In this document: positions 27,759-49,219 of the stretch, piece after piece
Layout of the letters: each line of letters opens with the position of its first letter
Numbering within the stretch: position 1 is the first letter of the stretch
Origin: a bacterium
Lineage (GTDB): Bacteria; Zhuqueibacterota; Zhuqueibacteria; Residuimicrobiales; Krinioviventaceae
DNA length: 64,000 bases
Direction: 5' to 3'
NCBI GenBank assembly: GCA_963674595.2
Contig: CAXXFV010000029.1
Location: 184,600-248,599, forward strand
Notes under the pieces: generated by a model
What the model saw: the letters and a program-made list of their open reading frames with translations, nothing else
Databases searched by the model: none
Told to the model about the DNA's origin: nothing
Made by a program: the position numbers and the translations under genes

Positions 27759-27993
27759 TTGCCTTGATTTTATTTAATTTGTATTATTCTTCTATCAGCA
27801 CAAAGGACTGTTTTTCAGGACGATTTGGTCGCGCATGGGTGTCCCGATGACTTTTGCTGATTATCCATTTTAATATTTATATTCGGGAAGTTACAACACA
27901 CACGAGGAGAGATTGCGGCGGTCACAAGATCATATTCCGGTTGGTTCGTTGCTCAAATGTTTTGGGTTGGGTGGGGTGTGCGTGGTTATTGAT
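27759..27993 (+). ncRNA. Dispersed promoter-bearing structured element, copy 1
   Basis: TTGCCT-N17-TATTAT; ATCAGCA/TGCTGAT and GGAC/GTCC stems; ACACACGAGGAGAGATTG..CGG..CCGGTT..TTTTGGGT blocks shared with three other copies. Confidence 0.7.
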
Positions 27994-28159
27994 TAACATT
28001 ATTTAAATCATTTTTTTGCAAATGATTATATTGGCATATGTGTTATATAAATTTGTTACCAGCAATATAATTATAACAATTGGAAATATTATTATTATGA
28101 TATAAGAAACTAAATATTATTTGATAAAGGTAGCTAGACTATGTGTTACAGGGAAAAAT

Positions 28160-28580
28160 ATGAATATTGAAAACGTATCAACAGTATTAGGATTACTTGG
28201 ATTGGGCGGATTGCTTTGAACATATTTCCGAATATTATGGGAACGAAAAAACACAACATTATTACAAAAACAAGAAGTTAAAGAAAAAAGATATAAATGT
28301 ATTATTATTCTTTTTTATCTCTTTTAGATTTAAAAAAAACAAATATTTATTACACCAAAATAATCGAGAATATATTAAAACACCTGAAGATTTAATTGAT
28401 AAACTTAAAATTGAATGAAATAACATGATTCTGTTCGTATCAGACGAAGTTATTTACTCAATGAATAAATTTATCAAAAATCCTTCACCAGAGGATTATC
28501 GTAAAATGGCTATCGCTATGAGAAAAGATCTTTGGGGAGGGAAAATATCATCCAAAAATATTGAAAATTTAAACCTATGA
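28160..28580 (+). pseudogene. Decayed AT-rich membrane-anchored hypothetical gene
   Basis: Reads MNIENVSTVLGLLGLGGLL*TYFRILWERK...(frameshift)...LKIE*NNMILFVSDEV...AMRKDLWGGK; two in-frame TGA and one frameshift. Confidence 0.7.
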
Positions 28581-28585
28581 CGATC

Positions 28586-28727
28586 CTCAAGACGCGATTA
28601 GACGGGGGTATTTACCCCGATAACAAATAGTTTAAAAATGTAAATATCAATTTGAGCCCTTTATTTGAAAACAGATCAGGGCACATGCCCTGGTTTATAT
28701 ACCACCCTGGGGAAAATTTCCAGGGGC
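28586..28727 (+). mobile_element. Miniature RAYT-derived element, copy 1
   Basis: GGGGTATTTACCCCGATAA, then sequence homologous to the tnpA 3' tail, GATCAGGGCACATGCCC and the CCCTGG..CCAGGG hairpin. Confidence 0.8.
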
Positions 28728-28865
28728 AAAAATTTACTGCTTATGTTTTGTAAATCATTCTTTTAAATACATATTTATTAATTACAAATGCCTAAAGGAG
28801 AAAAGTATCTTACTGAAAAATCAAGGAAACATAGAAACCACAATCCTTAAAAGAAGGAAGATCCT

Positions 28866-31067
28866 ATGAAAAATGTTTTACGATTATTTGTATTCCTGTT
28901 TATAATGCAATTTGGTTTCACTACCATTGCACACGCACAAAGAACAATAACGAAAGGCAGCCACCAGGATTTCAGAGAGGGAGTAGCTCATACACTAAGG
29001 ACTGCTCGCTTGAGCGATAATAAAATCCTTGTAACATATAAAGAGTCTTCGTCCAGTACCTCAGATTTATATGCCATTGCCGGTACTGTAAATTCGAGTA
29101 CAAGAGAAATCGCATGGGGTACAAGAACTTTTTTAGGATCAGGATACGGAACCGCTCAAGATATTGTTGCTCTATCCTCAACAAAAGCAGCTATATTTTT
29201 TGAATATTGGCCCAGTACTCCCGACACAATGCAATATTGTGTGTTGGATATTGACGGTACTGATATTACAAAAGGAGCGATAACAAAGTTTACTGATCAT
29301 CAGGTTTCGTATAATGCTTCTTTTAGAGCTGCAGCACTATCAAATGATCAGGTTGTTGTTTGTTATGAAACAACGACAGATTCGAGATTATTAGCAATGA
29401 CCGGAACAGTTAGCGGAACAACAATTACATGGGGCGGAGCTGCAACATTTAATGCTACAGATGCTGCTTTTACAGCCATTTGCAGGCTTAGTGACACAAA
29501 ATTTGCCATTGCTTACGAAGATGACGATAATAGTGATCGAGGCCAAATTCGTATTGGTACAGTAAGCGGCACAACAATTACTCCCGGGGCCAGTGCATAT
29601 ACGTTTAATACAGGCAGCGCGGTTGGCGCTTTAGCGATAACAGCTTTAGGTGAAGATAGATTGGCACTTGCATGGGAAGACGATGGAGATGCCAACGATG
29701 TTGCACAGGTATCACTTGCAACAGTAAGTGGTACTGCGGTTTCATTCCCTGGTAATGCACCGAGTTTTTTACAAAATGTAAATAGTGATTTAACAATTTC
29801 CGCTTTGTCAGAGTCTGAAGTTATCGTTGCCATGAGCGCAGGAGCAGGATCACCAGATTCCTATGCTTATTGCGTTTTGTCTGGTAATGATTTCAGTGTA
29901 AGCACAGATGTCCTTCTAAATGATAGAGCAGAGGATGCCAGTGTAAACTGCCTGACTTCAGACCTTTTTGTGATTAGTTTTATCGACTATTACGACGCGG
30001 AAGGCGCTGGTGCCCAATATGGGATGTCCAAAGTTTTTACAGTTGCAAGCGGTTCCTATCCGGAAATAAATGTACAGGGAAACAGTATAGATATTGTTTC
30101 AGGTGATAACACACCAACAACAGCCGACCATACGGATTTCGGCACAGGAGCTACGCTATCTCGAACGTTTACAATACAAAACCAGGGTGCAGGCACGCTC
30201 ACACTGGGCTCAAACGCTGTTACAATTACAGGTACAGATGCTGCAAACTTTAGTGTTGACACACAACCAGCAACTACCGTTTCCGGCAGTTCCAGCACAA
30301 CATTTGTGATTGATTTTGCATCTGCCAGCGCTACTTCTCATTCTGCAGAAATTCATATCAACAGTGATGACATTCACGAACGGGACTATTTCTTTTCAAT
30401 TACAGCAGAAGGCGCAGCATCTTCAAACGTCCGCGCCCAAATCAAAGTCTTTCTCGAAGGGCCGTACAATTCGACCAACAATGAAATGAATATTGACTTA
30501 AAGACAGCAGCGGTCATCCCTACAACATCACCCTATTCTGAAGACGCCCGCACCATTGGTTCCATTCCCGCAGAAATTGTAGATTGGGTGTTGGTGCAGC
30601 TTCGCTCCACGTCGGATGGAGCAGCCGTGGTTTCCAAAAGCGCATTGCTGCACAAAAGCGGTTCCATTGTTGCCGATGACGGTATAACAGATTACATAGA
30701 GCTGGAAACGGATGCGGATGATTATTTTATTGTTATTAAACACAGAAATCATATAGCCGTTATGAGCGCTGTTGTTCACAGCCTCACTGCCGGCAGTTCG
30801 ACTCTTTATGATTTTACAATAAACAAAAATAAATATTGGGAAAACGATGCCATAGAAGTGGATACCGATCCTCAAACAATTTACGGCATGTACGCCGGAG
30901 ACACCGATGCCCTCGGCACAGTAGACGCCGATGATAGGGCAGCCACATGGAACGACAGAAATAAATCCGGCTACGAAAACAGTGACTGTAAACTCACCGG
31001 TTCAGTCGATGCAGACGACAGGGCAGTCACCTGGAACAACAGAAATAAATCAACCAAATTGCCGTAA
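28866..31067 (+). CDS. Secreted protein: beta-propeller repeats, choice-of-anchor D Ig domain and C-terminal dockerin-like module
   Basis: Repeated 'TVSGTTIT.G'; 'PEINVQGN...TDFG..FTIQN.G'; 'KVFLEGPY', 'HRNH', duplicated 'G.VDADDRA.TWN.RNKS'. Confidence 0.8.
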   Translation: MKNVLRLFVFLFIMQFGFTTIAHAQRTITKGSHQDFREGVAHTLRTARLSDNKILVTYKESSSSTSDLYAIAGTVNSSTREIAWGTRTFLGSGYGTAQDIVALSSTKAAIFFEYWPSTPDTMQYCVLDIDGTDITKGAITKFTDHQVSYNASFRAAALSNDQVVVCYETTTDSRLLAMTGTVSGTTITWGGAATFNATDAAFTAICRLSDTKFAIAYEDDDNSDRGQIRIGTVSGTTITPGASAYTFNTGSAVGALAITALGEDRLALAWEDDGDANDVAQVSLATVSGTAVSFPGNAPSFLQNVNSDLTISALSESEVIVAMSAGAGSPDSYAYCVLSGNDFSVSTDVLLNDRAEDASVNCLTSDLFVISFIDYYDAEGAGAQYGMSKVFTVASGSYPEINVQGNSIDIVSGDNTPTTADHTDFGTGATLSRTFTIQNQGAGTLTLGSNAVTITGTDAANFSVDTQPATTVSGSSSTTFVIDFASASATSHSAEIHINSDDIHERDYFFSITAEGAASSNVRAQIKVFLEGPYNSTNNEMNIDLKTAAVIPTTSPYSEDARTIGSIPAEIVDWVLVQLRSTSDGAAVVSKSALLHKSGSIVADDGITDYIELETDADDYFIVIKHRNHIAVMSAVVHSLTAGSSTLYDFTINKNKYWENDAIEVDTDPQTIYGMYAGDTDALGTVDADDRAATWNDRNKSGYENSDCKLTGSVDADDRAVTWNNRNKSTKLP

Positions 31068-31105
31068 TAAATTGAATTTGAATTGAAAGACAAGAGGAAC
31101 CTCTC

Positions 31106-32248
31106 ATGAAAATAAAGATGATACTCATAGCAATGCTGGTAAACATAACCGCACTTTTTGCGCAATATGAATTCACTGCATCGGTACAAAACCAAACAGT
31201 CAACGGCACAGATTTCACCTTTGACATTTATATGCAGCAAACCGGCGCTGAAGCAATCTATCTCGGACAGAGTGATTTTGCCTTTACATTTAACAACGAA
31301 AACTTTACAAGCGCTGCGGCTACTGTCGAGGCAGACCTTTCTCTCTTTTATGGAAGCAGCGCCACAGTTATTTCACCTAACATCATTGTTGTTAATATCA
31401 ATGCACCTGCCCCCGGCAATCAAAGTGAATTCGATGCAATGGTTGCCCAAATGTCAGCGTCCGGAAATGGAAGTTTTATTGCGACAGTTAAAATCAGCAC
31501 AATCTCCAATCCATCCGGCTTTATGGGGCTGGCATGGAGAACTTCCGGCCTTAACAGCACCAAAATAAATCGATTTGACAACAGTGCTCCCTGGGCACAA
31601 TCCAGCATCACCTCAAGCGGCACATACTCTGGTATTTCCGACACCTCCCTGCCAGTGGACATCTCATCCTTCTCTGCAAGATGCGAAGGGCAATCTGTCA
31701 TTATCAACTGGACAACCGAATCTGAAACAGATAATCTGGGATTCATCCTCGAACGGTCTTTGGATAAAACTGTCTGGACAACCATTGCCAGCTACCAAAC
31801 AGACGATGCTTTGAAAGGCCAGGGAAATACCTCCTCTGCCACAGAATATACATTCACCGATTCGAAAATTAAACATGATGCAACCTACGCTTACCGACTT
31901 TCAGATGTGAACACAAACGGCAAGGTCAGCGTGTACTCTTCTCTTAACATCACGGTGGATACGCTTCCGAAAATGACAGACATGGAAAAGGCCTATCCCA
32001 ATCCTTTCAATCCCCAAACGCACATTGCCTATCATCTCGCAAAAGAGGCAGATGTAGAAATCACAGTTTTCAACATACTGGGCCGGCAAATTAAAACATT
32101 ACATTCAGGCAGACAGGTTGCAGGAAGCTATCATGTCTACTGGAACGCCACAAACAATTCAGGAGACAACGTACCCACAGGGACTTTTCTTATCTGTATG
32201 CAAGCTGGTGATATTTATAAAATTCAAAAAGTCCTGTTAATTAAATAA
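31106..32248 (+). CDS. Secreted protein: cohesin-like N-domain, Ig-like 'LPV' linker domain and FlgD/T9SS-type C-terminal domain
   Basis: 'F.FDIYM......LG...F.F.FN'; 'LPV..SSF', 'W.T.SE..N.GF..ERS'; 'YPNPFNP...G.Y...W'. Confidence 0.8.
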   Translation: MKIKMILIAMLVNITALFAQYEFTASVQNQTVNGTDFTFDIYMQQTGAEAIYLGQSDFAFTFNNENFTSAAATVEADLSLFYGSSATVISPNIIVVNINAPAPGNQSEFDAMVAQMSASGNGSFIATVKISTISNPSGFMGLAWRTSGLNSTKINRFDNSAPWAQSSITSSGTYSGISDTSLPVDISSFSARCEGQSVIINWTTESETDNLGFILERSLDKTVWTTIASYQTDDALKGQGNTSSATEYTFTDSKIKHDATYAYRLSDVNTNGKVSVYSSLNITVDTLPKMTDMEKAYPNPFNPQTHIAYHLAKEADVEITVFNILGRQIKTLHSGRQVAGSYHVYWNATNNSGDNVPTGTFLICMQAGDIYKIQKVLLIK

Positions 32249-32310
32249 GGAAAATTTTACAATAGGTTTTGTCAAAAAGGTGGTAATTTACAAGTCGTAG
32301 ACCTTAATTA

Positions 32311-32372
32311 CGCCTTGAGAATTTTTCTCAAGCGCACAATAAGTCAGGATATTTACCCCGGTAAATATCAAT
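32311..32372 (+). repeat. Partial RAYT-derived element (left end)
   Basis: CGCCTTGAGAA..TTCTCAAGCG hairpin, TATTTACCCCG and GTAAATATCAAT. Confidence 0.65.
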
Positions 32373-32561
32373 TATATAAAATACGCATAATTTTCCCGGT
32401 GTGAAAAATATTCATAGCAAATCCGTAAAATCAACCAATAACGGGATTTTTCAAACTTGTTCTCCCGGTTCTTTTGTGGAACGGTTGTTGTAATATTCTA
32501 TTCGATTTGAATGTTTCTCAGGACCATCAAAAAACGATACTAAACCTTAACAGGACTTTTT

Positions 32562-34145
32562 ATGTTAACGAGAAGAGATTTTTTAAAAATTGCGGGAGCA
32601 GCCACCGGTGCAGTTGCCGCCAATCCGTTAAGCGCTTTTAGCTATCCTTTTAAAAGAACGGCAAATTACTTCACAGTTCATCCCTTTATTGAACAAAATC
32701 CCGATGCTGTTTTTATCATGAAGACGAATGTTGATGTAAAGACAAATTCCGAGGCGGTAAAACAGGCTGGTCTTGCGTTCGGACAATCTGTATTTCAGTT
32801 AACAGATGACGACCAAACCGGCGTTCCATTGGACTATATGTTCCCCATTAAACCAAACCTAACATCATGGGCGTGGGATACGCCGCAGGATGCTGATTTT
32901 AAACAGGTGATGGGGGCTGTAACGGATGTAAATTTTGTGGAAGGTGTCATCGAAAGTATGAAAGCGCTTGGCATCAATGCCGAACAATTTTATATTCGCG
33001 ATGCGAATGGCTCTGAAAATTATGACAGGGCCGGTTACAGCGCTATGGGAGAACGTACCGGTGTGGATATCCAGTTAAACGCTCAAAATCCGCAACTGCA
33101 ATGGGTGGATGTCCCCAAAGGCGTGTGGTTTAAACGTATCCCCTATTTATGGCCGATCAACACCCCCAATAGCTGGTTGTTAAACATTGCGAAATTTAAA
33201 GCACATGGAATGGGATTGACATTGAGCGCCAAAAATCTTCAGGGAAGCATTCCGGCCCCTTATGTTTGTCATTGTGCGGCCTGGGGCGCATCAATGGGCA
33301 TGGATCCCGCAGATATACAGCCCAATGCTTTTGACGTGATTGCTGAAAATTATAATCGTCACAGAGATGCGGGAATTCCACGATGGGACGTAGAAGGATT
33401 GGACGTTAACGGCGGTCAGGGAATGGAGACATGGGCCGCGCGCTGCATCGATAATAATTCTGTTTTAAAACCGGGACTAAATGTTATTGAAGGTATCTAT
33501 GGCCGGGATGGAAACGGTTTTTATCAGGGTCCGCATAATGGCGCTGCCCAGGATTTTTTAACCAATATTATTATCTTTGGTAAAAATACTTTTTACGTAG
33601 ATATTATCGGAAAATGGCTTGGCGGACATGAACCGGGAAATTTTGGTCTTTTTCACATCGCCAAAGAACGTAACATGATTGATACCTTTAATCCAAAAGA
33701 AATTTCTTTATACGAATGGAATGCAAACGGACAAGCAACACTTGCTGATCTAGCAAATTTTGAACGCACTGCCCTGCAAACATATTATTTAACAAAGCCG
33801 GGTGAAGATAAATATCATCTTTGCAACGAGCCTTATGATTACAAACCCTCCATTATTGTGGATAATACAACGAGCAAACCGTCAAGTTTTATTCTCCAAC
33901 AAAACTATCCGAATCCGTTTAACGGTTCAACGTCCATTACGTTTACCCTTCCCAGGAGCGGCAGGACACGGTTGGAAATTTTTAACAGCCGGGGTGAAAT
34001 TGTTGATGTCATTGCAGAGGGATATTATCAGCAAGGAACACATTTAGCCCTTTGGAGAAACGATAATTTACCATCAGGTACCTATTTCTATCGATTACGA
34101 TTCGATTCCTTTAATGAAATGAAAAAAATGGTATTGGTAAAATAG
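32562..34145 (+). CDS. Tat-exported DUF362 domain protein with T9SS-type C-terminal tail
   Basis: TRRDFLK; 'IKPN', 'LNIAKFKAH..GLTLSAKNLQG', 'EGIYGRDG.G'; 'QNYPNPFN'. Confidence 0.85.
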   Translation: MLTRRDFLKIAGAATGAVAANPLSAFSYPFKRTANYFTVHPFIEQNPDAVFIMKTNVDVKTNSEAVKQAGLAFGQSVFQLTDDDQTGVPLDYMFPIKPNLTSWAWDTPQDADFKQVMGAVTDVNFVEGVIESMKALGINAEQFYIRDANGSENYDRAGYSAMGERTGVDIQLNAQNPQLQWVDVPKGVWFKRIPYLWPINTPNSWLLNIAKFKAHGMGLTLSAKNLQGSIPAPYVCHCAAWGASMGMDPADIQPNAFDVIAENYNRHRDAGIPRWDVEGLDVNGGQGMETWAARCIDNNSVLKPGLNVIEGIYGRDGNGFYQGPHNGAAQDFLTNIIIFGKNTFYVDIIGKWLGGHEPGNFGLFHIAKERNMIDTFNPKEISLYEWNANGQATLADLANFERTALQTYYLTKPGEDKYHLCNEPYDYKPSIIVDNTTSKPSSFILQQNYPNPFNGSTSITFTLPRSGRTRLEIFNSRGEIVDVIAEGYYQQGTHLALWRNDNLPSGTYFYRLRFDSFNEMKKMVLVK

Positions 34146-34329
34146 TATCTTTTGCCCGAGTTGGAAAAAATTCTCCGAACCGGCAAAACATACTGTAGAA
34201 TTTTCAGAATTTATATTGATGAATAATGTTGAAAACGTTAAATTGGCAGAATAAGAACAATAGTGTTTGCCCACATAGACTTGCTGAATCAACACCAGCC
34301 ATCCAAAATTTAATGAACAAAGGGAAAAA

Positions 34330-34582: not shown

Positions 34583-34642
34583 GAAACAGCAAAAAATTGT
34601 CAAAACCGTAATGAAATCATTATAAAGATTGAATGATTCTGA

Positions 34643-34800: not shown

Positions 34801-34868
34801 GGTAAAGTATTAATTAAACAATGGGGCAAAAGCCCGGTTTATAACAGGCATACATTAGAGGTGTTGAA

Positions 34869-36729: not shown

Positions 36730-36931
36730 AAAACAAAACACAATATAAAGCAATTTTGCTCATCCGGGGATTCCGTTCTCCGGTTATAAATGACAAGGAG
36801 TACCTGCTCCATATTGCTCACCTTGAGAGTGTTTTCCAAGACGTGGTCGAGCAGGATATTTACGCTCTATAAAATTTACGAAAAAATAATTTCTCCCCTT
36901 TGCCCTTTTTTCAACATTTTTCAAAAACAGC

Positions 36932-37140
36932 TTGCCTGGATTTTTTATAATTTGTATAATTCATTTGTCAGCAAAAGGGACCGTTATTCAGGATGATATG
37001 GGTGTTCCTGGATTGCCTCTTACTGATTTATAATTTCATCTTAAAAAACGGGTTTTAACAACACACACGAGGAAGAGATTTCGCCGGTTATCAAATTATA
37101 TTCCTGTGGTCTCACTTGTAAATGATTAGGCTGGATGCGT
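36932..37140 (+). ncRNA. Dispersed promoter-bearing structured element, copy 2
   Basis: TTGCCT-N17-TATAAT; GTCAG/CTGAT and GGGAC/GTTCC stems; AACACACACGAGGAAGAGATT block; homology to copy 1 starts about 30 nt upstream of the -35. Confidence 0.65.
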
Positions 37141-37316
37141 TAAGTATCCCGGTTACCAGTTCTGTTTTGCAGCAGGATAATTTTATTCCTTGTAAAAAAC
37201 AGATATGTTCCCATATGGAAATATAGAATTTGCCGGTAAAAATTAACAATATTGGTTTTATAATAATTGAGTGCTATGCTAAACAAATAATTGAATTCAC
37301 AGGGAGATTTAAGACG

Positions 37317-38333
37317 ATGAAACAGACATGGAAATCCGGCAGCATCACATTATTAATTTTTATTCTATTTTTACTTTCCGGTCCGGCAAATGCTCAACAG
37401 GATATCGACACAAATAACGATATTGAAAAATGGAAAGGGAAAAAACCGGCTTTAATATTAAAAGAAAATAAAACCAAAGTAATAACCGGAAAAATTATTA
37501 AAGTTGATGAAAACGGAGTGATATTCGATCCAAAAAAGGAAAGTCTGTTTTATAATCCTCCGCAAAAGTTTTACTCATTTGATGAAATTGAAACACTGGT
37601 TGGTAACAATGGTAAATATATTATCAATCAGGGTAAACGAATTGGTGAAAATTACGAGTCGGCGCAACAGGCCAGGAGACCGACCCAAAGAAGTAAAAGT
37701 AGTAAAAGTAGAAGTAAAAAATCTTTTTCTCATAAATTCAGGTTTAATGCAGAATATGGATATAGCTCGCTCAGAATAAAACCGGAAGACAATATTGATC
37801 CCATTTTCAAGGATTATGTAAATGAATTAAAATCAGGCAGCAATTTTAGTATGGATGTCTGTTGTTTTGTTTCTTACTATTATGGAGTTGGACTTGTATA
37901 CTCAAATTTTTCAACATCCGGTTTTATTGACGGAATTTATGCGGTGGATATTACCACAGGCAGAGAGTTAGGTCCCGGTAGGATTGAAGACAACATAACA
38001 GTATCTTTTATTGGTCCAGCTTTTTTTGAAAGAAAAGCGTTAATTCCGCAAAAATTACTGCTTATTTCCAATATAGCTATTGGCCGTATATCCTATGTTA
38101 ATGACGGCACGATTATAACGGAACCGGTTACAATAAAGGGAAATACTATCGGTTTTAGTGGGGCAATCGGATTAGATTTTTTTATAGCTAAAGATTTTGC
38201 AATTGGTATAGATTTTTCATACCTGATTGGAAAAATCGGCAAATACAAAATTAACAATCAAACCGTCGATCTTGAAGAAGATGAAAGTATGAATCGCTGG
38301 GATTTTAATATAGGTTTAAAATATTATCTTTAA
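37317..38333 (+). CDS. Outer-membrane beta-barrel protein
   Basis: Signal peptide; alternating aromatic/Gly strands; C-terminal 'FNIGLKYYL'. Confidence 0.75.
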   Translation: MKQTWKSGSITLLIFILFLLSGPANAQQDIDTNNDIEKWKGKKPALILKENKTKVITGKIIKVDENGVIFDPKKESLFYNPPQKFYSFDEIETLVGNNGKYIINQGKRIGENYESAQQARRPTQRSKSSKSRSKKSFSHKFRFNAEYGYSSLRIKPEDNIDPIFKDYVNELKSGSNFSMDVCCFVSYYYGVGLVYSNFSTSGFIDGIYAVDITTGRELGPGRIEDNITVSFIGPAFFERKALIPQKLLLISNIAIGRISYVNDGTIITEPVTIKGNTIGFSGAIGLDFFIAKDFAIGIDFSYLIGKIGKYKINNQTVDLEEDESMNRWDFNIGLKYYL

Positions 38334-39598: not shown

Positions 39599-41395
39599 AT
39601 GATTTCGAAAAAAACTGGTCTCGTATGGAACCTCATCTCGTTTTGTATCATCATTTTAACCATTTCTGCATCAGCACAAGATCCCGGAACAAACACATTT
39701 ACAGGAGCGGTAAACGCTAACTGGTATGAACCCGGCAACTGGAGCGAAGGACATTGTCCGACTTACAGCGATTATGTGCTTATTCCGGAAGGTAAAACCG
39801 TTGCTATCAATACAGAGGGAGATAGAATTGATGCAAAGAATATTACAAATAATGGAACCATAAAAATTGAAAAAACCTCGTTTCAATCAATAGCTAGTAT
39901 CAATGCCGGTAACTATTTTACAAATAACGGGACCATTGAAGGTGACGATATTTATCTCACGATAACCGGATATAAGAACTTTGATAACAGAGGAACGATT
40001 AAAAGCAATGACACTGTTAAAATATTCTCGTCCGGAAAAGCAACCAATTTGGAAGCCGGAAAGATAACCGGAGGATCTCTTGAAATTTTTGGACTTAAAG
40101 GTATTGATAATAAAGGAGAGATGGTATCCGGCAATGCTACAGACACCAAAGAAGCCGGACACATTAACCTGTACGCAGGCGGCGAAGAGTATGAATCCGG
40201 TGATATAAATAATTGGGGAATGATCCGCCTGGGTAACGGTGGATCAAATAGCAGAGGCGGTAAAGCACATATTACAGCAAAAAATGTCAACTGTTTTCCG
40301 GGCAGTTATCTTTTCGGAGGGATGGGAGCGGTATTCGGCGGTATTATTCGTATCAACGTTCGAGGTAAACTTGTTATCGCCGGAGAGTCTGCCACCGGAA
40401 CAGGAATTCCGGCTGTTAAAAATCCAGCCAATCAAACCGAATTTGTAAATCTGGACGACTATACTTATTATAAAATGACGGGTGACACCATTATTTTTGC
40501 CGGGGCTATCACAAACACCTATGGCGACTATATTTTGGCCCGGGCCAATGTAATTAAATTCGAAGCTGCCACCGGCAGCAATGTGTTAATGGCGGAAAAC
40601 GGCATAACACTGGAAACCCCGCCGGGAGGAACCATTGATTTTTCCGGACTCACCACTGAAAATTCCATCTCCACAACCAGTGATTCCATATTTCTGTACA
40701 GCGACTACATCGTCCCCCCTGCCGCCGGCATCGGCAGCATTTCCGAACAGCCTGTAGTGCCGCAAGCCGCTAATGATGAACAGGTCGATGCAGAGCTGTT
40801 GTGCTTGGGACAAAAACATGCTACATTAACAGCAGACACAGTGATATATAACCTTCAAAATACCGGAACGAAAGAACAGAGTTTTAGCTATTCTGTTTCT
40901 TCAGAACTGGGTTCCTGCACAGCAGAAGGCAGCACCCCGGTATTAGGTCCCTTTGAATCAACCATTCTGGAAGTACTTCTCTACAGACCGGAAAACGTAA
41001 CAACAGACACCCTTGATACCCTGACCCTGACAGTTTCAGGCGATAACGATTTTTCCACATCACTAACGACAACTGTTTCTATCTCAAAGGACATAATCAT
41101 CAGTGATGTTCCTGAAAAAGCAGCCATGCCGGAAAACTATTTTATGGTCCGCACGTTTCCAAATCCGTTTAATCCGGCAACAAACGTCGTGTTTAATCTG
41201 GATAAATTACAAAACGTATCCTTTAAAGTTGTAAATGTTATGGGCAAGGTGGTATATCAACAAAAACTGGGACGATTAAATGCCGGTGAACACACTATAT
41301 CCTGGGACGGGTCTCAATATGCTTCCGGTACCTATTATATGGTCATTGAAACCGAATCCGCAAAATGTGTAACAAAAGCGTTAATGCTGAAATAA
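39599..41395 (+). CDS. Secreted beta-helix-like protein with T9SS-type C-terminal domain
   Basis: 'W..PGNW....P...D.V.I'; repeated 'N.GTI'; 'FPNPFNP...ASGTYY'. Confidence 0.8.
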   Translation: MISKKTGLVWNLISFCIIILTISASAQDPGTNTFTGAVNANWYEPGNWSEGHCPTYSDYVLIPEGKTVAINTEGDRIDAKNITNNGTIKIEKTSFQSIASINAGNYFTNNGTIEGDDIYLTITGYKNFDNRGTIKSNDTVKIFSSGKATNLEAGKITGGSLEIFGLKGIDNKGEMVSGNATDTKEAGHINLYAGGEEYESGDINNWGMIRLGNGGSNSRGGKAHITAKNVNCFPGSYLFGGMGAVFGGIIRINVRGKLVIAGESATGTGIPAVKNPANQTEFVNLDDYTYYKMTGDTIIFAGAITNTYGDYILARANVIKFEAATGSNVLMAENGITLETPPGGTIDFSGLTTENSISTTSDSIFLYSDYIVPPAAGIGSISEQPVVPQAANDEQVDAELLCLGQKHATLTADTVIYNLQNTGTKEQSFSYSVSSELGSCTAEGSTPVLGPFESTILEVLLYRPENVTTDTLDTLTLTVSGDNDFSTSLTTTVSISKDIIISDVPEKAAMPENYFMVRTFPNPFNPATNVVFNLDKLQNVSFKVVNVMGKVVYQQKLGRLNAGEHTISWDGSQYASGTYYMVIETESAKCVTKALMLK

Positions 41396-42416: not shown

Positions 42417-42472
42417 TTTTTATTGATATAATCATTAATTCGGCTGAACCGGCTGAAAGAAAGTGAGGAATT

Positions 42473-43915
42473 ATGAATATAAGAAAGAGTTTTGGTCTGG
42501 CAGGGGTCCTTGTACTGTTGCTGCTTTTTACAGACAGTTTAATCTACGCACAAAACTGGCCAATGGTAAATGCAAACAAAGAACGGACATCCTGGGCGTC
42601 TAAAGAAACCACACTTTATCCGCCGCTTGAACAGAAAAAGGAAATTGCCGTCAAGTCGGAAGGGGATTATATCGTTCTCAATTACATAACAGTCTATGAA
42701 AATCTGCTTGCCTTGGGAGTCGGCAGATATCCAAATGTTCTGGAGGCAGCGGATATTTCCAGCGGTGACACATTGTGGACGTTTGAGGTTCCTGAGTCAA
42801 GAGCAAGTATGAATTTTGCCTGCGCTCAAAACGATTCCATGATTTTTGCCGGAGGCCAGCAAGGTTTGGGGCTTTATGCATTAAACAAATCGACAGGCGA
42901 GCTAAAATGGAGTAAACCCATGGGCACACTTTATACAAAAAGCCCAATACTCGATAATGAGTATTTATACATTTTAGGAGACAGTCTGTATTGTTTATCC
43001 ATAAAAGACGGGGCAACAATCTGGTCCAAATATCTCAAAATTCAGGGTACCCCGACTGTAGATGATTTATATGCCTATATTATTGGAAAAGGTAAAATAC
43101 AACTATTTGATAAAATGACCGGAGAACTGGAATGGTGGAAACCAAATACCCAAAATTCCGGGAGTGGATTAACGCTGGATGAGCAATGTTTTTATACATT
43201 CTCAAGTGATACAATATATGCCCACGTAAAAGAGAGCAAGAATATAAAATGGTTCTTTCATAATCCAGGGCATACAATTATTTGCGGAGGACAAAATGCA
43301 TTTGCTGTTGCAGAAACTAAATTATGCATTACCATGGAAGACACTGCAAACTCGCAGGTAAAGCTCGTTACGTTAAATAAAGAAAACGGAGAGCTTTTAT
43401 GGGACCATACCTTTTCCGGTAACTGGCTTTATACGCCAACAATTGCCAATGGTGTTGTTTATATCGTTTCAGTTGAAGGGGATTTGTATGCTTTTGACCT
43501 GGAAACCGGAACACAGATGTTTTACGATAATTCAAATAATTATCATTATCAAACTGCTGTTGCAAATCATGAGCTTTATGTGCCGACACGATCCAAAGTC
43601 GTTATATTTGGCAACGAAGATACAGGTATAGATAAAAACCATTCATTGCCGCAGGGTATCGAACTTTTGCAAAATTATCCCAATCCCTTTAATCCGGCAA
43701 CAACAATAAAATTTTACCTGTCTGAAAATGAATTTGTTACCTTGGCCATTTATGACAATCTTGGCAGAAAAATAAAGACGCTTTTAAATGAAAAAAGAGC
43801 AAAAGGGCATCACAGGGTTAATTTTGACGGCAGCGATTTGTCGAGCGGTATATACTATTGCCGGCTCTCGGCAGGTTCGTTTGTCAACACAAAAAAATTA
43901 TTACTACTTAAATAA
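42473..43915 (+). CDS. PQQ-like (BamB-type) beta-propeller protein with T9SS-type tail
   Basis: 'WPM...N..RT'; repeated 'AL...TG..W'; 'QNYPNPFNP...LSSGIYY'. Confidence 0.88.
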   Translation: MNIRKSFGLAGVLVLLLLFTDSLIYAQNWPMVNANKERTSWASKETTLYPPLEQKKEIAVKSEGDYIVLNYITVYENLLALGVGRYPNVLEAADISSGDTLWTFEVPESRASMNFACAQNDSMIFAGGQQGLGLYALNKSTGELKWSKPMGTLYTKSPILDNEYLYILGDSLYCLSIKDGATIWSKYLKIQGTPTVDDLYAYIIGKGKIQLFDKMTGELEWWKPNTQNSGSGLTLDEQCFYTFSSDTIYAHVKESKNIKWFFHNPGHTIICGGQNAFAVAETKLCITMEDTANSQVKLVTLNKENGELLWDHTFSGNWLYTPTIANGVVYIVSVEGDLYAFDLETGTQMFYDNSNNYHYQTAVANHELYVPTRSKVVIFGNEDTGIDKNHSLPQGIELLQNYPNPFNPATTIKFYLSENEFVTLAIYDNLGRKIKTLLNEKRAKGHHRVNFDGSDLSSGIYYCRLSAGSFVNTKKLLLLK

Positions 43916-44003
43916 AACAACAACAATTAACAGCGACACCGGATTGAGCAGATTTAATACATGCTGTTCAATCCGGGCTTGCACATTGAAAGGGGTAAAC
44001 CTG

Positions 44004-44588: not shown

Positions 44589-44756
44589 ACAGGACGGTCA
44601 TAAAATTCCTTATTATAAAAATAAAGGGAGAAACCAGAACACTCTTGCCGCAAGGATGGTATATTATTTAAAAAGCCCTTGCACCAGGGACACGAAATTT
44701 GTATCATTTATTTGTCAGAATGAGAGTTGTATCAACATCAAAAATTGGAGCATCTC

Positions 44757-45512
44757 TTGAAAAAAAGACAAAAAGTCAGACTTGGAATTTTACTCTTTTC
44801 CTTTTTTTTATTTCCGGTTACATTTTACTATCTGTCACCCTACCTCATTGTCCAGGCAACCAGTGAAGGCATCATCAACGGAAGTTTTATTTTATTTTCC
44901 CTTTTATTTTTATCATCATTAATATTGGGACGCGCTTTTTGCGGCTGGGTATGCCCGGCAGCAGGCTGTCAGGAGGTAATCACCAATGTACGTGAAAAAA
45001 GGGTAATCAAAGACAACTGGATAAAATGGGTGATATGGCTTCCATGGATTTCGGCAATTATTGTCATGGCGGTTCGAAACCATGGGTATGACAAAGTTAA
45101 TTTCCTATATCAAACAACCTATGGTTTTTCCATTAATAATATTTATTCGAGTATTACCTATGTTTTTGTCCTGCTGCTCATCGTACTTCCGGCCTTTATA
45201 ATCGGCAAACGATCATTTTGCCACCACATTTGCTGGATGGCTCCCTTTATGATCATCGGCAGAAAAATCCGAAACCTGTTTAAATGGCCGGCCCTGCAGC
45301 TCGTTGCGGACAAGGACCAATGCACACAATGCCAGACATGCACCAATCATTGTCCGATGAGTCTGCCGGTAAACAAGATGGTCCAGTCAAGTCACATGGA
45401 AAACGCGGAATGTATATTGTGCGGTTCCTGTATCGACGGCTGTCCCCAGAGTGTCATTCATTATAAATTCACCCATACCAAAAATCCAACCCGGGACACA
45501 AACAAGGGATAA
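44757..45512 (+). CDS. Membrane 4Fe-4S binding protein (NapH/MauN-like polyferredoxin)
   Basis: 'GRAFCGWVCP', 'FCHHICW', CxxCxxCxxxCP twice; GGAG plus TTG start. Confidence 0.9.
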   Translation: MKKRQKVRLGILLFSFFLFPVTFYYLSPYLIVQATSEGIINGSFILFSLLFLSSLILGRAFCGWVCPAAGCQEVITNVREKRVIKDNWIKWVIWLPWISAIIVMAVRNHGYDKVNFLYQTTYGFSINNIYSSITYVFVLLLIVLPAFIIGKRSFCHHICWMAPFMIIGRKIRNLFKWPALQLVADKDQCTQCQTCTNHCPMSLPVNKMVQSSHMENAECILCGSCIDGCPQSVIHYKFTHTKNPTRDTNKG

Positions 45513-45532
45513 CATATTATTTTAAAAATACC

Positions 45533-45744
45533 TTGCGCTAATATTTCAGAATTCGTATTATTGATTTATTATTTTAAGGATTGTTTTTCATCATGATTTG
45601 ACCGGGCAGGGGTGTTCCTGATTTTTCACATATAAAATGTGATTTAACAGTACACACAAGGAAGAAATTGAGCCGGTCACAAAATCACAATCCGGTTATT
45701 TCACGTCAAAATTTTTGGGTGGGTAAAGAGCATGGATAATTGAT
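45533..45744 (+). ncRNA. Dispersed promoter-bearing structured element, copy 3
   Basis: TTGCGC-N17-TATTAT; AAGGATTGTTTTTCA..GGGTGTTCC; ACACACAAGGAAGAAATTGAGCCGG..CCGGTT..TTTTTGGGT. Confidence 0.65.
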
Positions 45745-45748
45745 ATTA

Positions 45749-45800
45749 GCAAGGTGCCGCTCCTGCCGCACCATCTATAACCGATATAAAAAATACCGAG
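45749..45800. repeat. REPIN family A, copy 4 (degenerate)
   Basis: GCAAGGTGCCGCTCCTGCCGCACC plus AAAATAC spacer, directly after element copy 3. Confidence 0.6.
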
Positions 45801-45840
45801 TAACATAAATACATTTGATCTGCAACTTTATTAAACAGGA

Positions 45841-48800
45841 ATGAATATGAAAATAATGAAAATAGGTGTCTGTCTTTTAGCGCTGCAGGCAAGCTATGTC
45901 GGAACGCCATTGTATGCGCAGCAGTTGCCGGCTGGTTACGAAGTAAGGTATTTTTCAAAAAACCCGCAAGCCAACGGTGAAACTGATTTTAAAGGAGAAA
46001 CGTCAACTTTAAATACGGACCAGCGTATTGAATTCCTGAAATTTTATGCCGACCAGGTTTCAACATATTATGGAGATAAAGACCTTGATACTAAAGTGGT
46101 TAGCAACAAAGAGGCCCTCGATTTTTTTAACAGTATAAAACCCCAGCCTCTTCCTTCCATCAGAAAAAGAGTAAATCTTGGTCAATGGAAATGGCTGAGT
46201 TCCAAAAAAGGAAAATGTCAAGAAAGCATCCAAAAACTTTTAAAATTCAACGGTGCAAAAGATATTCTGTTAAAAGAGGGCGTGCTGAATTTTCAAAACA
46301 ATGCCGCATGGAAGTGGAATTTCCCGGCACAAACATGGCGTTTTTCCCTCCAATGGAAGGCCCGTTTGCTGGATGACAATTCAAACGCTGAATTCCTGTT
46401 GCTTGATGGCAGAACAGATAAAATATTCGCAAAAATTGAAATGATTAAAAATACCTGCTCCTACTATTCCCTGGGCGAAAAAATGCAGGCGACCCGCTGC
46501 CGCACTGGTGCCTGGTACGATATCAAAATCGAGGCGGACCTGGACGGTGACGACGGCAGACCGCATTATAATGTGTTTATCAACGGAGAACAGGTTGGCG
46601 ATTATGTTGCTGCGAACGAAATCACCGGTCAAATCGATGCTTTTATGGTTAAAACCTCGGGAGGGATTGAAACGGATGAACTGTACGGCGTTGGCTATCA
46701 CAAAACCACGGATGTGTCACAACCCTATTATCCCAAAACCTTTATTGATGAGCGGTTTGACAGGGAACCCTGCATTGACGGCTGGCAGGACAACAGCTAT
46801 GATGACACCTGCTGGCAGATAACCGACCTTCCGCATGTGGTGGGATCGGAAAGATATGAAGGACAAGATCTGTTTCTCAGAAAAACCGTTAAAATTGAAA
46901 ATCTGCAGCGGGCTTATTTAAATATCGAAACGCTTGATCCGGGCGGGGAAATATGGATAAACGGTAAAATGGCCGCACTTGTCAAGGACCGCTATCCCAT
47001 CCGATTGGACGTCACGGATTACCTGCTCCCCTATTCGGAAAACCTGATCGCCATCAAAGTGAATGCCTTTTATCTGACGCCAAAACTAGGCGTGCCCCTT
47101 GGACAGACCTACCTCGATCATAATTACGGATGGTTTGCAGGGCGGGCATTCCTCGACCTGGTCGGAGAGACCTTTGTAAATAACGTATTTTTTTATACAA
47201 AATCCATAAAAGATGACAAAGCTCTGGTCCACGCAAAAATTGATCTTGAACACAGGGGAACGCTTGGGTTCAAAGGGAAAATCAAAATTAAAACAGTTAT
47301 CTGGGACGAGAATACCCAAACCGGGACAACGCCGGCGGCAGAGGTGCCGGATGTGTTGATCGGACCCGGAATTAAGGAATTTACGACTGACTTTGAGATG
47401 GAAAATCCGAAACTGTGGTCGCCTGAATCACCCACGCTTTATAAAGTGATAGTCGAACTGGAAAAAGACGGCATTGTGGTTGATGATTATGTATTTACCA
47501 CCGGCATCCGCACCGTTTCCCAGGAAGGCGGCACCTTTCGTCTTAACGGAAAACCCGCCATGCTGAACGGCGTGCAGATATTCGGGTTCCGAGGCCCGAT
47601 AGAAAACCTGGCTACATGGCTGCGCTGCCCTCCGGATTACTGGGTCGCCAAAGAGATGCTCATGACGCAAAAGATGAACAGCAACCTGCTCAGAATGCAT
47701 GCTCACGGATGGAAAGAAAAAGCGGTCGGCGTGAATGACGAACGCTACTGCGAACTGGCTGACCAGATGGGCATTATGCTGATATGGAGTCCTCCGGCGT
47801 GGCTGCGGGAAGGTGACTGGGGAAGGGCCGATTTTGACGGGTATAACAAATATATGAAACAGGTCCAAAACCACCCGAGTATTGTAATGTGGGAGGTTTC
47901 AAACCATCCCAATACCTTTAAAAAACACGAAACCTACGAAAGCGATCTGTTTTGTGAAGCGGCCTACCAGGCAGTTTATCCCTACGACCCCAGCCGGCTG
48001 ATTTCGCTCACATCTCATATCGGTCATCTGCATTACGGTAATGATGAGGGGACCATAGATCAGCGCGGGGGCAAAATCTCACTGCCAAAAACCGCCGTTG
48101 CCGACCAGGGCAACCAGGACGCCCTTACCGGCTATGGCACATCAAAAGATTTTTACGGCGATAGCCTCAAGTCCTCGAAAGCATGGACAGCCCCCATGGT
48201 AACCCGGGGCAATCAGGACGCGCCCACAGGCTATGGCAATGATTGGAGCCAGTTGCGCACCTGGCCGGGGGCCTATCGCCAGGATTTTCTGGACAGTAAG
48301 GAAAGGGCCTTTTTTAATTTTGAACACCAGGAATCCATCGGTCAGCCCAACTGGGACCTATGCAAAGGAAAACCCTGGTATCATTTACCGTCTTATGAAT
48401 GGCCTTATGACGAGGGAAGCATCGGTAAAAAGCTGTCATTTGACGAATGGCGGGTGAGCCAGGCCTGGCAGGCCTTTTCGGCCTATGAGGCGATTAAAAA
48501 AATGAGAAAACTTGATTATGACGGTTTTTCATGGTGCTGCCTCCACGGTGGGGCCAATTCCGTAACCTACAGGAAACCACTGATCGACTTTGAAGACCAC
48601 GCCAAACTGGCTTTTCATATTCACAAAACCGTTTTTAACAAGGTTCTTGCCGGCAGCAATAATGTTGATGTGGTTTATGGGCCGGACGATATGATCACCC
48701 CAATGGTGCTTAACCTGGGCGAGCAAAAAAATGTCAATGTGGCTGTCATTATCCGTAACAAATTCAATGGCCGGGAGCTTGAAAAAAAGGTCTACCATGA

Positions 48801-48906
48801 TGTTGTACTGCCGGCAGGAAGAACAGTCACGGAACTGGCGCCTTTTAAACCCGCCCTGGACCAGGAAGGGCTTTACTGGATAGAGTACAGGGTGGAAAAC
48901 AAATAA
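45841..48906 (+). CDS. Glycoside hydrolase family 2 (beta-galactosidase/glucuronidase-like)
   Basis: 'IWING', 'PKLWSPESP.LY', 'GIRT......F.LNG', 'N..R.H', 'DQMGI', 'NHPSIVMWE..N'. Confidence 0.88.
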   Translation: MNMKIMKIGVCLLALQASYVGTPLYAQQLPAGYEVRYFSKNPQANGETDFKGETSTLNTDQRIEFLKFYADQVSTYYGDKDLDTKVVSNKEALDFFNSIKPQPLPSIRKRVNLGQWKWLSSKKGKCQESIQKLLKFNGAKDILLKEGVLNFQNNAAWKWNFPAQTWRFSLQWKARLLDDNSNAEFLLLDGRTDKIFAKIEMIKNTCSYYSLGEKMQATRCRTGAWYDIKIEADLDGDDGRPHYNVFINGEQVGDYVAANEITGQIDAFMVKTSGGIETDELYGVGYHKTTDVSQPYYPKTFIDERFDREPCIDGWQDNSYDDTCWQITDLPHVVGSERYEGQDLFLRKTVKIENLQRAYLNIETLDPGGEIWINGKMAALVKDRYPIRLDVTDYLLPYSENLIAIKVNAFYLTPKLGVPLGQTYLDHNYGWFAGRAFLDLVGETFVNNVFFYTKSIKDDKALVHAKIDLEHRGTLGFKGKIKIKTVIWDENTQTGTTPAAEVPDVLIGPGIKEFTTDFEMENPKLWSPESPTLYKVIVELEKDGIVVDDYVFTTGIRTVSQEGGTFRLNGKPAMLNGVQIFGFRGPIENLATWLRCPPDYWVAKEMLMTQKMNSNLLRMHAHGWKEKAVGVNDERYCELADQMGIMLIWSPPAWLREGDWGRADFDGYNKYMKQVQNHPSIVMWEVSNHPNTFKKHETYESDLFCEAAYQAVYPYDPSRLISLTSHIGHLHYGNDEGTIDQRGGKISLPKTAVADQGNQDALTGYGTSKDFYGDSLKSSKAWTAPMVTRGNQDAPTGYGNDWSQLRTWPGAYRQDFLDSKERAFFNFEHQESIGQPNWDLCKGKPWYHLPSYEWPYDEGSIGKKLSFDEWRVSQAWQAFSAYEAIKKMRKLDYDGFSWCCLHGGANSVTYRKPLIDFEDHAKLAFHIHKTVFNKVLAGSNNVDVVYGPDDMITPMVLNLGEQKNVNVAVIIRNKFNGRELEKKVYHDVVLPAGRTVTELAPFKPALDQEGLYWIEYRVENK

Positions 48907-48956
48907 TAAAACAAACCTGATTTGATATTTACCAAAACATAAATATTGTTATAAAT

Positions 48957-48982
48957 CACCCGGAGGTTCCGGCCTCCGGGTG
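48957..48982. terminator. Strong GC hairpin after the GH2 gene
   Basis: CACCCGGAGG-TTCCGG-CCTCCGGGTG. Confidence 0.6.
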
Positions 48983-48992
48983 TAAAAATCCC

Positions 48993-49219
48993 TTGCGCTA
49001 ATATCAGGGAATTCGTATTATTCTCTATCAGCATTAAGGACTGTTTTTCAGGACAATTTTGTCGGACACGGGAGTCCATGAAAACCTTTAGCTGATTTAC
49101 CATTTTATTAATTACGGGATTCAACAGTACATACGAGGAAGAGATTGCGTCGGTTACAATGTTATTTTTCGGTTGTTATACTCTCAAAATTTTTGGGTTG
49201 GGTGGAGTGTGGATTATTC
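48993..49219 (+). ncRNA. Dispersed promoter-bearing structured element, copy 4
   Basis: TTGCGC-N17-TATTAT; ATCAGC/GCTGAT, GGACT/AGTCC and GACAA/TTGTC stems; ACGAGGAAGAGATTGCGTCGG; TTTTGGGTTGGGTGG. Confidence 0.7.

Follow-up and report, generated by a model that had tools for sequence, protein, structure and literature searches.

Putative mobile promoters, as defined by Nijveen, Matus-Garcia, and van Passel (2012), are homologous non-coding sequences that lie upstream of non-homologous genes within one genome; some contain RNA motifs, most come as pairs with an average identity of 92%, the search that revealed them required at least 80% identity over at least 50 nt, and their means of spread is unknown (PMC3575422). 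They form the nearest general category for the element considered here, a promoter followed by a structured RNA leader, which we analyzed in a 64-kb stretch of bacterial DNA (the window, positions 184600-248599 of contig C29) and throughout the genome to which it belongs (G000; 6.62 Mb in 37 contigs). As with putative mobile promoters, similar upstream sequence precedes non-paralogous genes. In contrast to them, the family has 85-101 members, its median identity of 66% places it mostly below the published 80% threshold, and each full copy joins a complete conserved promoter to approximately 150-200 nt of covarying RNA.

Other described systems, namely Correia, ERIC, and BOX repeats, attC sites, the put and EAR leaders, and leaders controlled by CsrA, each share one or two traits with the element and fail others. 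The pneumococcal BOX element is a transcribed intergenic repeat. Correia, ERIC, and REPIN are named examples of the same kind (PMC3575422). The element resembles all of these in its high copy number, its intergenic location, and its capacity to form hairpins if transcribed and to affect its neighbors, but the repeats are bounded by terminal inverted repeats or served by dedicated transposases, can face either way, and include copies that are nearly identical, whereas here identity does not exceed 88%, the orientation relative to genes is fixed, and a complete promoter always lies 5'. Integron attC and attI sites and the arrays they form likewise combine small, unrelated, co-oriented cassettes, toxin-antitoxin genes among them, with a lineage-specific repeat in between; attC is also similar in size and imperfect dyad symmetry, and a true integron integrase gene stands beside one copy of the element. 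Unlike attC, however, the element lacks the RYYYAAC/GTTRRRY core, lies upstream of genes, and carries a promoter; unlike integron cassettes, many of the units are multigene, and the integrase gene is not beside an array. The sequences support well a real, large, lineage-restricted family of promoters with structured leaders, absent from Rfam, in which the leader would act in cis.

A promoter-plus-leader family in one genome

A preliminary description of the window had recognized four homologous blocks, which begin at 27759, 36932, 45533, and 48993, and had proposed that they encode an undescribed structured RNA with its own promoter. The blocks were placed correctly and are homologous far beyond chance (75% mean column identity over the 280 columns of alignment A1), but a family of four holds for the window only. 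A DNA search of the genome with copy 1 gave 96 candidates and 40 scored matches; an nhmmer profile built from the four window copies found 101 matches at E<1e-3, 77 of them at E<1e-10; and R1, a covariance model of 158 positions and 26 pairs built from 22 copies, with the structure written by hand on alignment A3 and the copies aligned by Infernal, found 85 at E<=0.01, all of them among the 101. The 16 loci reported by nhmmer and not by R1 (e.g., G000:C29:88903-88983, C8:51306-51383, and C3:175423-175492) are promoter-only or promoter-plus-stub fragments. All 101 nhmmer matches start within the first 20 positions of the profile, so that the promoter end is always kept, and 64 of them reach domain 2 and 40 the tail (both described below): the 5' boundary is fixed and the 3' boundary varies.

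The promoter of the four blocks, TTGC(CT/GC) and TAT(T/A)AT separated by exactly 17 nt, can be read directly in every one of them, and TTGnnn-(16-18)-TAnnnT occurs at the expected offset in all 85 copies, compared with 66 of 1498 control windows scanned with the same pattern and offsets. The spacer measures 17 nt in 78 copies, 18 in six, and 16 in one; the commonest -35 hexamers are TTGCGC (29 copies), TTGCAC (21), and TTGCCT (9), and the commonest -10 hexamers TATTAT (28) and TATAAT (25). In the consensus of the 64 long copies, an A/T tract, AAATTTTTTAAAAACC, leads into CTTGC, a 17-nt spacer ending in AATTTG, and TAtnAT; AAAA lies directly 5' of the -35 in 77 of 85 copies, a tract that we take to resemble an UP element. 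Since the -10 ends 3-4 nt before R1 position 1 in 75 of the 85, a start 6-8 nt past the -10 would fall on the first bases of stem P1, which are the most likely site of initiation, and the RNA 5' end would then probably be buried in P1. A sigma-54 promoter and a Bacteroidetes-type (-33/-7) promoter were considered and rejected, as neither spacing nor letters fit. A generic promoter scan, with 73 sites found and 55.8 expected in DNA so rich in A and T, was uninformative. Elsewhere in G000, Shine-Dalgarno (SD) sequences and sigma-70-type promoters are clear, although the proteome is rich in cargo of the type IX secretion system (T9SS).

Downstream of the promoter, the 64 long copies share a consensus fold in two domains. 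Domain 1 begins 3-4 bases past the -10 and is a 68-70-nt three-stem hairpin (P1, AUCAGC/GCUGAU; P2, AAGG/CCUU; P3, UCAGGAC/GUUCCUGA) with a conserved apical loop, AAUUUGGUCGnGCAyGGGAG (..UUUGGUCG..AyGGGAG). It is followed by UUUACCA, an A/U-rich linker, and AyGGGAUU, and then by domain 2, ACACACGAGGAAGAGAUUG-loop-AAUCAUAUUCCUGUU, in which P4 pairs AGGAA with UUCCU and P5 GAUU with AAUC. Many copies continue into a tail, CACGGUCAAAAUUnUUGGGUUGGGUGGGGUGUG, that is rich in G and U and poor in C (G+U 68%, C 10%). A G-quadruplex was rejected as a family feature of the tail: four G2 runs occur in 10 of 85 copies and a strict TTGGGYKGGG in 16 of 85.

The closing stems previously read in domain 1, ATCAGC/GCTGAT in copies 1 and 4 and GTCAG/CTGAT in copy 2, are present, as is the inner stem of the GGAC/GTCC type, and covariation, for which four copies were too few to judge, holds across 80 distinct sequences, in an alignment that was fitted to a model and leans toward structure. 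RNAalifold applied to plain MAFFT alignments returned no structure in one run and a wrong one in another, because the 3' halves of the stems shift among copies: those of P2 and P3 pair in differing registers with a constant 5' half. Covariation was instead counted on Infernal alignment A4, which holds 92 rows, 80 distinct sequences, and five helices. Of its 1903 cells, 87.9% pair, a share that drops to 31.3-53.5% once the 3' partners are displaced by 1-3 columns; both sides vary in 20 of the 26 pairs (in pair 33-83, for instance, 44 sequences have GC, 14 AU, and 10 GU); and compensatory cells number 90, compared with 33.6 in shuffles, a count that none of 500 shuffles reached. Cells with G·U or U·G exceed those with A·C or C·A by 205 to 66, which assigns the pairing to the plus strand, the one transcribed from the promoter. 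P4 pairs in 90.1% of cells, and domain 2 is mostly invariant across copies. Further covarying pairs lie in the P5 loop (columns 187-192; UA 25, AU 19) and ahead of domain 2 (columns 142-156). A pseudoknot between the apical loop and the linker, UGGU/ACCA, is compatible with 55/74, 61/73, 69/73, and 37/72 cells but is nearly invariant, which leaves it unproven.

Rfam 15 gave no match in the 64-kb window at the gathering scores of its families; copy 1 drew just three weak, unrelated matches at E<=10, and 15 copy-bearing loci drew three at E<=1, none of them at a leader. The view that the RNA belongs to no known family is thus borne out, and these negatives, the covariation in A4, and the promoters in 85 of 85 copies together uphold the proposal of an undescribed structured RNA with a promoter of its own.

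Position of the copies and possible roles of the leader

With long open reading frames (ORFs) as proxies for genes, 83 of the 85 copies are intergenic, and in 81 the next downstream ORF of at least 100 aa has the orientation of the copy and starts, at the median, 167 nt beyond the R1 match (10th-90th percentile, 68-509). Copy 4 is among the four exceptions and still has a co-oriented ORF of 84 aa. Upstream ORFs are co-oriented too in 69 of 85 cases, so that runs of genes on one strand account for part of the bias, not for all of it. Terminator-like sites within 260 nt past the core are found behind 7 of the 85 copies, compared with 84 of 598 windows upstream of random ORFs. Intergenic, co-oriented, terminator-poor positions are the signature of a promoter and 5' leader and not of a separate RNA gene. 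Two copies, G000:C29:96442-96552 (minus) and 96787-96942 (plus), are placed back to back with approximately 235 nt between them; one drives a beta-lactamase-family ORF and the other, in the opposite direction, an LVIVD/T9SS protein gene.

We consider it very probable that each block is a cis-acting cassette of promoter plus 5' leader, whose RNA would be the leader of whichever gene follows and no gene of its own. Such a cassette would comprise (i) an A/T-rich, UP-like tract with a sigma-70-type promoter (TTGCnn, 17 nt, TAtnAT), (ii) a transcript beginning at the first bases of the three-stem domain 1 hairpin, and (iii) an A/U linker containing another AyGGGA, a further hairpin, and, in many copies, a G/U-rich tail. 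We further infer a role in cis for the leader once initiation has taken place, that of a gate indifferent to its cargo; the best explanation overall, to which we give about even odds, is a standard expression cassette reused at least 85 times with such a gate. If so, one bacterium would run approximately 85 transcription units from a single promoter-plus-leader design, most of them carrying accessory, defense, toxin-antitoxin, secreted-protein, or mobile-element genes, and would offer a testable case of newly acquired genes being plugged into host expression and control. The family would also bring a structured RNA motif that is new and whose paralogs make an unusually large alignment for structural work, along with a ready-made strong promoter and leader part for poorly studied T9SS-bearing bacteria.

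How the gate might work is suggested by domain 2 and by GGA motifs. Domain 2 looks like a masked translation start: TTG follows AGGAAGAGA in 50 of 72 copies, and an SD-like AGGAA upstream of it pairs with UUCCU. The frames that open at this TTG run for 1-78 codons in most copies, and their residues 2-6 vary freely; a constant "HIPV" is encoded by CAUAUUCCUGUU, which does not vary at any of the three codon positions and makes up the 3' strand of P4. Constancy at every codon position, together with the role in P4, argues against a conserved peptide. A small ORF or leader peptide was likewise rejected, with TTG present in only 50 of 72 copies, frames of variable length, and residues free to vary. 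Two copies differ in that a real protein begins at the TTG: the 330-aa integron integrase in one and, in the other, a DUF6438 protein of 186 aa (89.9 bits) with a signal-peptide-like N-terminus; the family match of the integrase begins at residue 16, and no alternative in-frame ATG, GTG, or TTG was seen upstream of that match. Genes of G000 are preceded by clear SD sequences, such as AAAAGGAG ahead of the ORF behind copy 4.

GGA occurs 4.0 times per core where 1.86 would be expected, an enrichment of approximately 2.2-fold. Five places are conserved, in 39, 46, 44, 46, and 63 of 80 copies; two lie in the unpaired AyGGGA motifs and three in stems, and one of the five falls within the SD-like AGGAA. 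The genome encodes csrA (PF02599, 86.9 bits; G000:C23:706346-706504), and no match to Hfq was found in it. The enrichment and csrA are compatible with the earlier hint at CsrA, and a leader under CsrA control would suit them no less well than a sponge. Like CsrA/RsmA leaders and CsrB/RsmZ sponges, the element has several GGA motifs, one of them overlapping an SD-like site, in a genome with csrA. Sponges of the CsrB/RsmZ type are terminated free RNAs. The element, a putative CsrA target, departs from CsrA-type RNAs in that three of its five conserved GGA places are in stems, and from CsrA-type leaders in that its SD-like site mostly opens a short frame far from a real gene; to our knowledge, no single leader reused 85 times or more is known for CsrA targets.

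In the particular mechanism that we tentatively put forward, with odds clearly below even, UUCCU in the domain 2 hairpin would mask the SD-like AGGAA and the TTG, and a CsrA-type GGA-binding protein, or the hairpin alone, would control ribosome access to them. The masked site would open a short upstream frame in most copies and a real gene in at least two, and access to it would set the stability of, and read-through into, the downstream message. The 5'-terminal hairpin could in addition shield the 5' end; in other bacteria, burial of the 5' end in a hairpin protects messages from 5'-end-dependent decay.

Several observations weigh against a gated cassette or its details. TTG is absent from 22 of 72 copies, and 6 of the 50 frames stop within five codons. 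Three of the five conserved GGA sites are internal to stems. The distance from leader to start codon is long and variable (68-509 nt), which is awkward for a purely translational gate, and the leader is partly dispensable, with domain 2 reached by 64 and the tail by 40 of the 101 matches that all keep the promoter. The shuffle test overstates covariation because A4 was fitted to the model and the copies are akin. In a thermodynamic sample of six short folds and one long fold, domain 1 has z-scores of -1.24, -1.36, and -2.85 on the plus strand and of -1.58, -3.34, and -3.92 as reverse complements, which score as well or better, the whole copy 4 leader has a z-score of -0.24, and single-sequence energies are ordinary. 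Finally, the transcript start, its 3' end, and read-through are all deduced from the letters.

The positional data bear most directly on a different proposal, that the copies are a family of free-standing small RNAs (sRNAs), either CsrA sponges or base-pairing RNAs of the FopS type, each with its own promoter and released by processing or by Rho. The 14 FopS RNAs of Bacteroides thetaiotaomicron have a seed that is single-stranded and end in a Rho-independent terminator; they are intergenic, antisense, or 3'UTR-derived, and phages are suggested as their carriers (PMC11697453). FopS and the present family are alike as paralogous RNA families with conserved promoters across one genome, and FopS demonstrates that multicopy sRNA families exist; the strong promoter in 85 of 85 copies, the enriched GGA with two AyGGGA motifs in unpaired regions, and csrA point the same way. 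In contrast to the terminated FopS RNAs (PMC11697453), however, terminator-like sites lie behind only 7 of the 85 copies (84 of 598 in controls) and 81 of 85 copies head a co-oriented ORF nearby, so that position is not independent of the neighbor's orientation; the 3' extent is variable, and two copies continue in frame into real proteins. We regard free sRNAs as quite improbable. The two options of the preliminary description thus part company: the same counts (81/85 co-oriented, 83/85 intergenic, 7/85 with terminators) favor its "portable promoter/leader module" and disfavor its free sRNA, so that its interpretation survives in part, as an undescribed structured element without the four-copy limit.

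What we take to be the main rival to the gate accepts the cassette and differs on what the leader does. Known leaders that control elongation include HK022 put, EAR, the LoaP leaders, and lambda PR' with Q. Here, too, a promoter-proximal RNA might render RNA polymerase resistant or sensitive to termination, by Rho or otherwise, over foreign and often long units. Presumed resemblances to HK022 put, Bacillus EAR, and lambda PR'/6S are a structured RNA right after a strong promoter and action in cis on whatever lies downstream; differences are the lack of sequence or Rfam similarity, the far higher copy number, and the lack of terminators detected behind the leader beyond those at 7 of 85 copies. 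A portable leader needs control that is independent of cargo; the structure would begin at or near +1; the C-poor tail (C 10%, G+U 68%) would be a poor site for Rho loading; units can be long (approximately 9 kb and five genes behind copy 1); conservation of the promoter extends to its spacer and to the initially transcribed region, as it does in factor-loaded promoters; and the genome has a second NusG-family gene, at C7:125383-125658. Against these points, the analysis turned up no partner protein, many units consist of one small gene of 1-2 kb and leave little for antitermination to do, and no terminator stands behind the leader to be overcome (7/85). We judge elongation control unlikely, and less so than the other alternatives to the gate.

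Cargo, mobile DNA, and distribution

The genes behind the copies are diverse. A Pfam scan covered 81 ORFs, the first behind each of 80 copies plus the integrase. No Pfam family was assigned to 35 of them, and approximately 10 carry a T9SS C-terminal sorting domain. The others include two Gp49/HigB-like toxins, a nucleotidyltransferase, TIR, Schlafen/AlbA_2, and GmrSD proteins, a type I restriction R subunit, an SNF2 helicase, a KAP NTPase, a caspase-like protease, RHS, Bro-N, and DUF4238 proteins, an IS200-like transposase, histidine kinases, a glycoside hydrolase of family 2 (GH2), Lnt, a radical SAM enzyme, and others. The argument that unrelated downstream genes speak against a ligand-specific riboswitch stands and is strengthened by this list, in which no pathway or ligand is shared among the 81 ORFs. 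Copies are concentrated on contigs C29 (20), C26 (10), and C13 (8), at 6-9 per 100 kb compared with 0.5-1.5 elsewhere, and on these contigs they can be 1-2 kb apart, heading single small genes.

Among 72 copies, pairwise identity has a median of 0.66 (interquartile range, 0.63-0.69) and a maximum of 0.88, and the median identity to the nearest neighbor is 0.75. In the absence of near-identical copies, nothing has been copied recently; the nearest neighbor lies within 20 kb for 20 of the 72, and local duplication has contributed to the growth of the family. Conserved blocks against a nearly saturated background argue for selection on the promoter, stems, and loops.

One copy, G000:C3:116779-116929 (minus), lies directly upstream of the only true integron integrase gene of the genome (TIGR02249, 454 bits with a cut-off of 265; G000:C3:115823-116767, minus; locus L134/L150) and runs into its ORF, which opens at the TTG of the element. 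No attC-like array was found beside the integrase gene, and no canonical attC signal either; exactly complementary RYYYAAC..GTTRRRY pairs number 86 genome-wide on both strands, with six on C29, four on C13, and two on C26, which by this crude test is no enrichment. Canonical attC identity was accordingly rejected, as the element consensus lacks the R''/R' core (RYYYAAC/GTTRRRY, 45-134 nt apart) and the pairs are, by the same crude test, unenriched.

Upstream of the integrase-linked copy is a phage-like module that encodes a replication initiator, an HNH protein, a ParB-like protein, a terminase large subunit, and a 64-aa protein. The terminase (G000:C3:117284-119008) recurs with 97-98% identity at three further loci (C10:52448-54172, C3:27810-29375, and C9:140400-141965), as a partial gene with 92% identity at a contig end (C25:4793-5221), and as a paralogue with 62% identity (C26:26024-27643). 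Four such modules end just 5' of a copy of the element; the copies concerned are only about 75-80% alike, and the cargo behind them differs (the integrase, a TIR protein, a hybrid kinase, and a small ORF). Four other copies are preceded by a second kind of gene, whose end lies at the same shared terminator hairpin, so that in this subfamily the unit is terminator, promoter, and leader. Other repeat families lie just 5' of many copies (e.g., at G000:C29:49537-49657, the C13:69923 flank, and C26:16365-16485), among them a palindromic GTCACCCTGAGCGG..GTCGAAGGGTG unit, runs of CTTTGTG-like short repeats, GTAGAGACGCA..TGCGTCTCTAC hairpins, and tandem ACAGGATATTTACCC units.

Contigs of related strains from public runs, which are low-depth metagenome contigs and can serve as a hint only, match the GH2 gene and copy 4 of the window and then depart from it, X5 at 49177 and X4 at 49249. 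In one X5 contig, the 3' portion of a copy of the element is linked to 32338, approximately 220 nt upstream of a DUF362/T9SS gene that has no copy in front of it in G000.

These links raise the possibility that the element is a mobile or recombinogenic DNA repeat (similar to miniature inverted-repeat transposable elements, Correia, ERIC, or BOX) or a site of cassette capture or attachment, with the promoter a by-product. The dense contigs, the cassette- and island-type cargo, the copy adjoining a true integron integrase gene (454 bits with a cut-off of 265), the islands with near-identical terminases that end just 5' of copies, the strain contigs that diverge at the 3' edge of copy 4 and place a copy before a gene lacking one here, and the fixed 5' and variable 3' boundaries are all consistent with it. 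Yet near-identical copies are missing (maximum, 0.88; nearest-neighbor median, 0.75), which speaks against recent movement; the orientation toward genes is strongly biased; the stems show compensatory changes and a one-strand excess of G·U; RYYYAAC..GTTRRRY pairs are, by the crude test, not in excess; and neither terminal inverted repeats nor target duplications were seen by eye in the consensus and its flanks. A mere repeat or attachment site is thus distinctly improbable in our estimate.

A related idea, to which we give the same long odds, keeps the expression cassette and makes it the socket of a gene-capture system, a unit of terminator, promoter, and leader to which the solitary integron integrase, or else the phage-like islands through their own integration machinery, would join cargo at the 3' edge, just after ..AUUCCUGUU. 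It is suggested by the combination of a fixed 5' with a variable 3' boundary, by the two in-frame fusions right after CCUGUU, by strain differences that start at the 3' edge of copy 4, and by islands that end just upstream of copies. Were it true, each acquired defense, toxin-antitoxin, or secreted-protein cassette would be expressed at once from the same promoter and would come under one lineage-specific post-transcriptional regulator, and an integron-like system whose recombination site carries a promoter and a regulatory RNA would extend the integron idea.

Beyond G000, R1 was run on 40 relatives, 18 genomes from the same family (representing 10 other genera) and 22 from the same order, and detected no copy. 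These relatives are distant, with Lnt identities of 36-41% in three and 31% in the other two, and upstream of their lnt orthologues R1 detected no leader with its filters off (best score, 14.3 bits, E 0.13). Exact-motif scans, which required 21-22 exact bases and covered sequences other than the genome of the window and its near kin, gave three chance-like loci (19.9 and 13.3 bits) in genome_contigs (one genome per species, 185,579 species), 10 chance-like loci in JGI metagenome_contigs (best, 15.6 bits), and in IMG/VR viral_contigs a single locus, on a contig of the same length as that of metagenome locus L146, which gave no R1 match; the best model scores among all loci from these scans, 19.9, 15.6, and 14.1 bits, are chance-like. 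A blastn search of phage records with one copy returned no match.

This distribution bears on the idea that the leader senses a global signal in the manner of a riboswitch (a second messenger, temperature, or an ion, for example) and heads a large regulon. The structured core is conserved, as are unpaired nucleotides within it, and the SD-masking hairpin behind it resembles an expression platform, all of which would suit a sensor; unrelated downstream genes would fit a second-messenger regulon. Known riboswitch classes, however, are broadly distributed, whereas neither the 40 relatives nor the motif scans (genomes of 185,579 species, JGI metagenomes, and IMG/VR) yielded a copy; moreover, the promoter is conserved together with the RNA, the leader is truncated in many copies, and no Rfam family matches. 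We hold a sensor to be very improbable, the least probable of the alternatives.

The four copies in the window and their neighbors

All four window copies lie on the plus strand. Copy 1 begins with an A/T-rich, UP-like tract, TTTTTCAAAAACC, and promoter (27740-27787; -35 TTGCCT at 27759-27764, 17-nt spacer, -10 TATTAT at 27782-27787). Its leader core, 27792-27946, matches R1 with 135.3 bits (G000:C29:212391-212545) and folds into the domain 1 three-stem hairpin (27794-27861), an A/U linker with AyGGGA, and the domain 2 hairpin (approximately 27902-27942); a G/U-rich tail (..CAAATGTTTTGGGTTGGGTGGGGTGTG..) can be read at 27947-27985. Copy 2 has its UP-like tract and promoter at 36913-36960, with TTGCCT-17-TATAAT at 36932-36960 also picked up by the generic promoter scan, and its leader core at 36965-37112 (R1 match C29:221564-221711, 120 bits), with domain 1 at 36967-37027, TTT in place of TTG in domain 2, and a diverged tail. 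Copy 3, the most diverged, has the promoter TTGCGC-17-TATTAT from 45533 (within 45514-45561) and a leader core with a G-rich tail at 45566-45735 (R1 match C29:230165-230300, 66.5 bits), in which P1 is unrecognizable. Copy 4 has the same promoter, TTGCGC-17-TATTAT, from 48993 (48974-49021), preceded by a hairpin, ACCCGGAGG..CCTCCGGGT, that ends the GH2 unit; its leader core and G/U-rich tail occupy 49025-49212 (R1 match C29:233624-233777, 140.3 bits), with domain 1 at 49027-49096 and domain 2 behind it.

The first long ORF behind copy 1, at 28866-31067 (plus), encodes 733 aa without a Pfam family and belongs to approximately 9 kb and five genes downstream of that copy. The intervening 27994-28865, approximately 870 nt, is A/T-rich with ORFs of at most 73 aa; it represents the remains of a gene or else a very long untranslated region. 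Behind copy 2 is an ORF of 367 aa without a Pfam family (37230-38333, plus), behind copy 3 the gene for the GH2-family glycoside hydrolase (45841-48906, plus; Glyco_hydro_2, E 6.3e-17), and behind copy 4 an ORFan of 84 aa (49295-49549, plus). Between 31106 and 43915 runs a series of genes with T9SS C-terminal sorting domains (31106-32248, 32562-34145, 39599-41395, and 42473-43915), and at approximately 43173-43839 all four sequencing runs have a spike in depth and many loose ends, as expected of a repeated domain.

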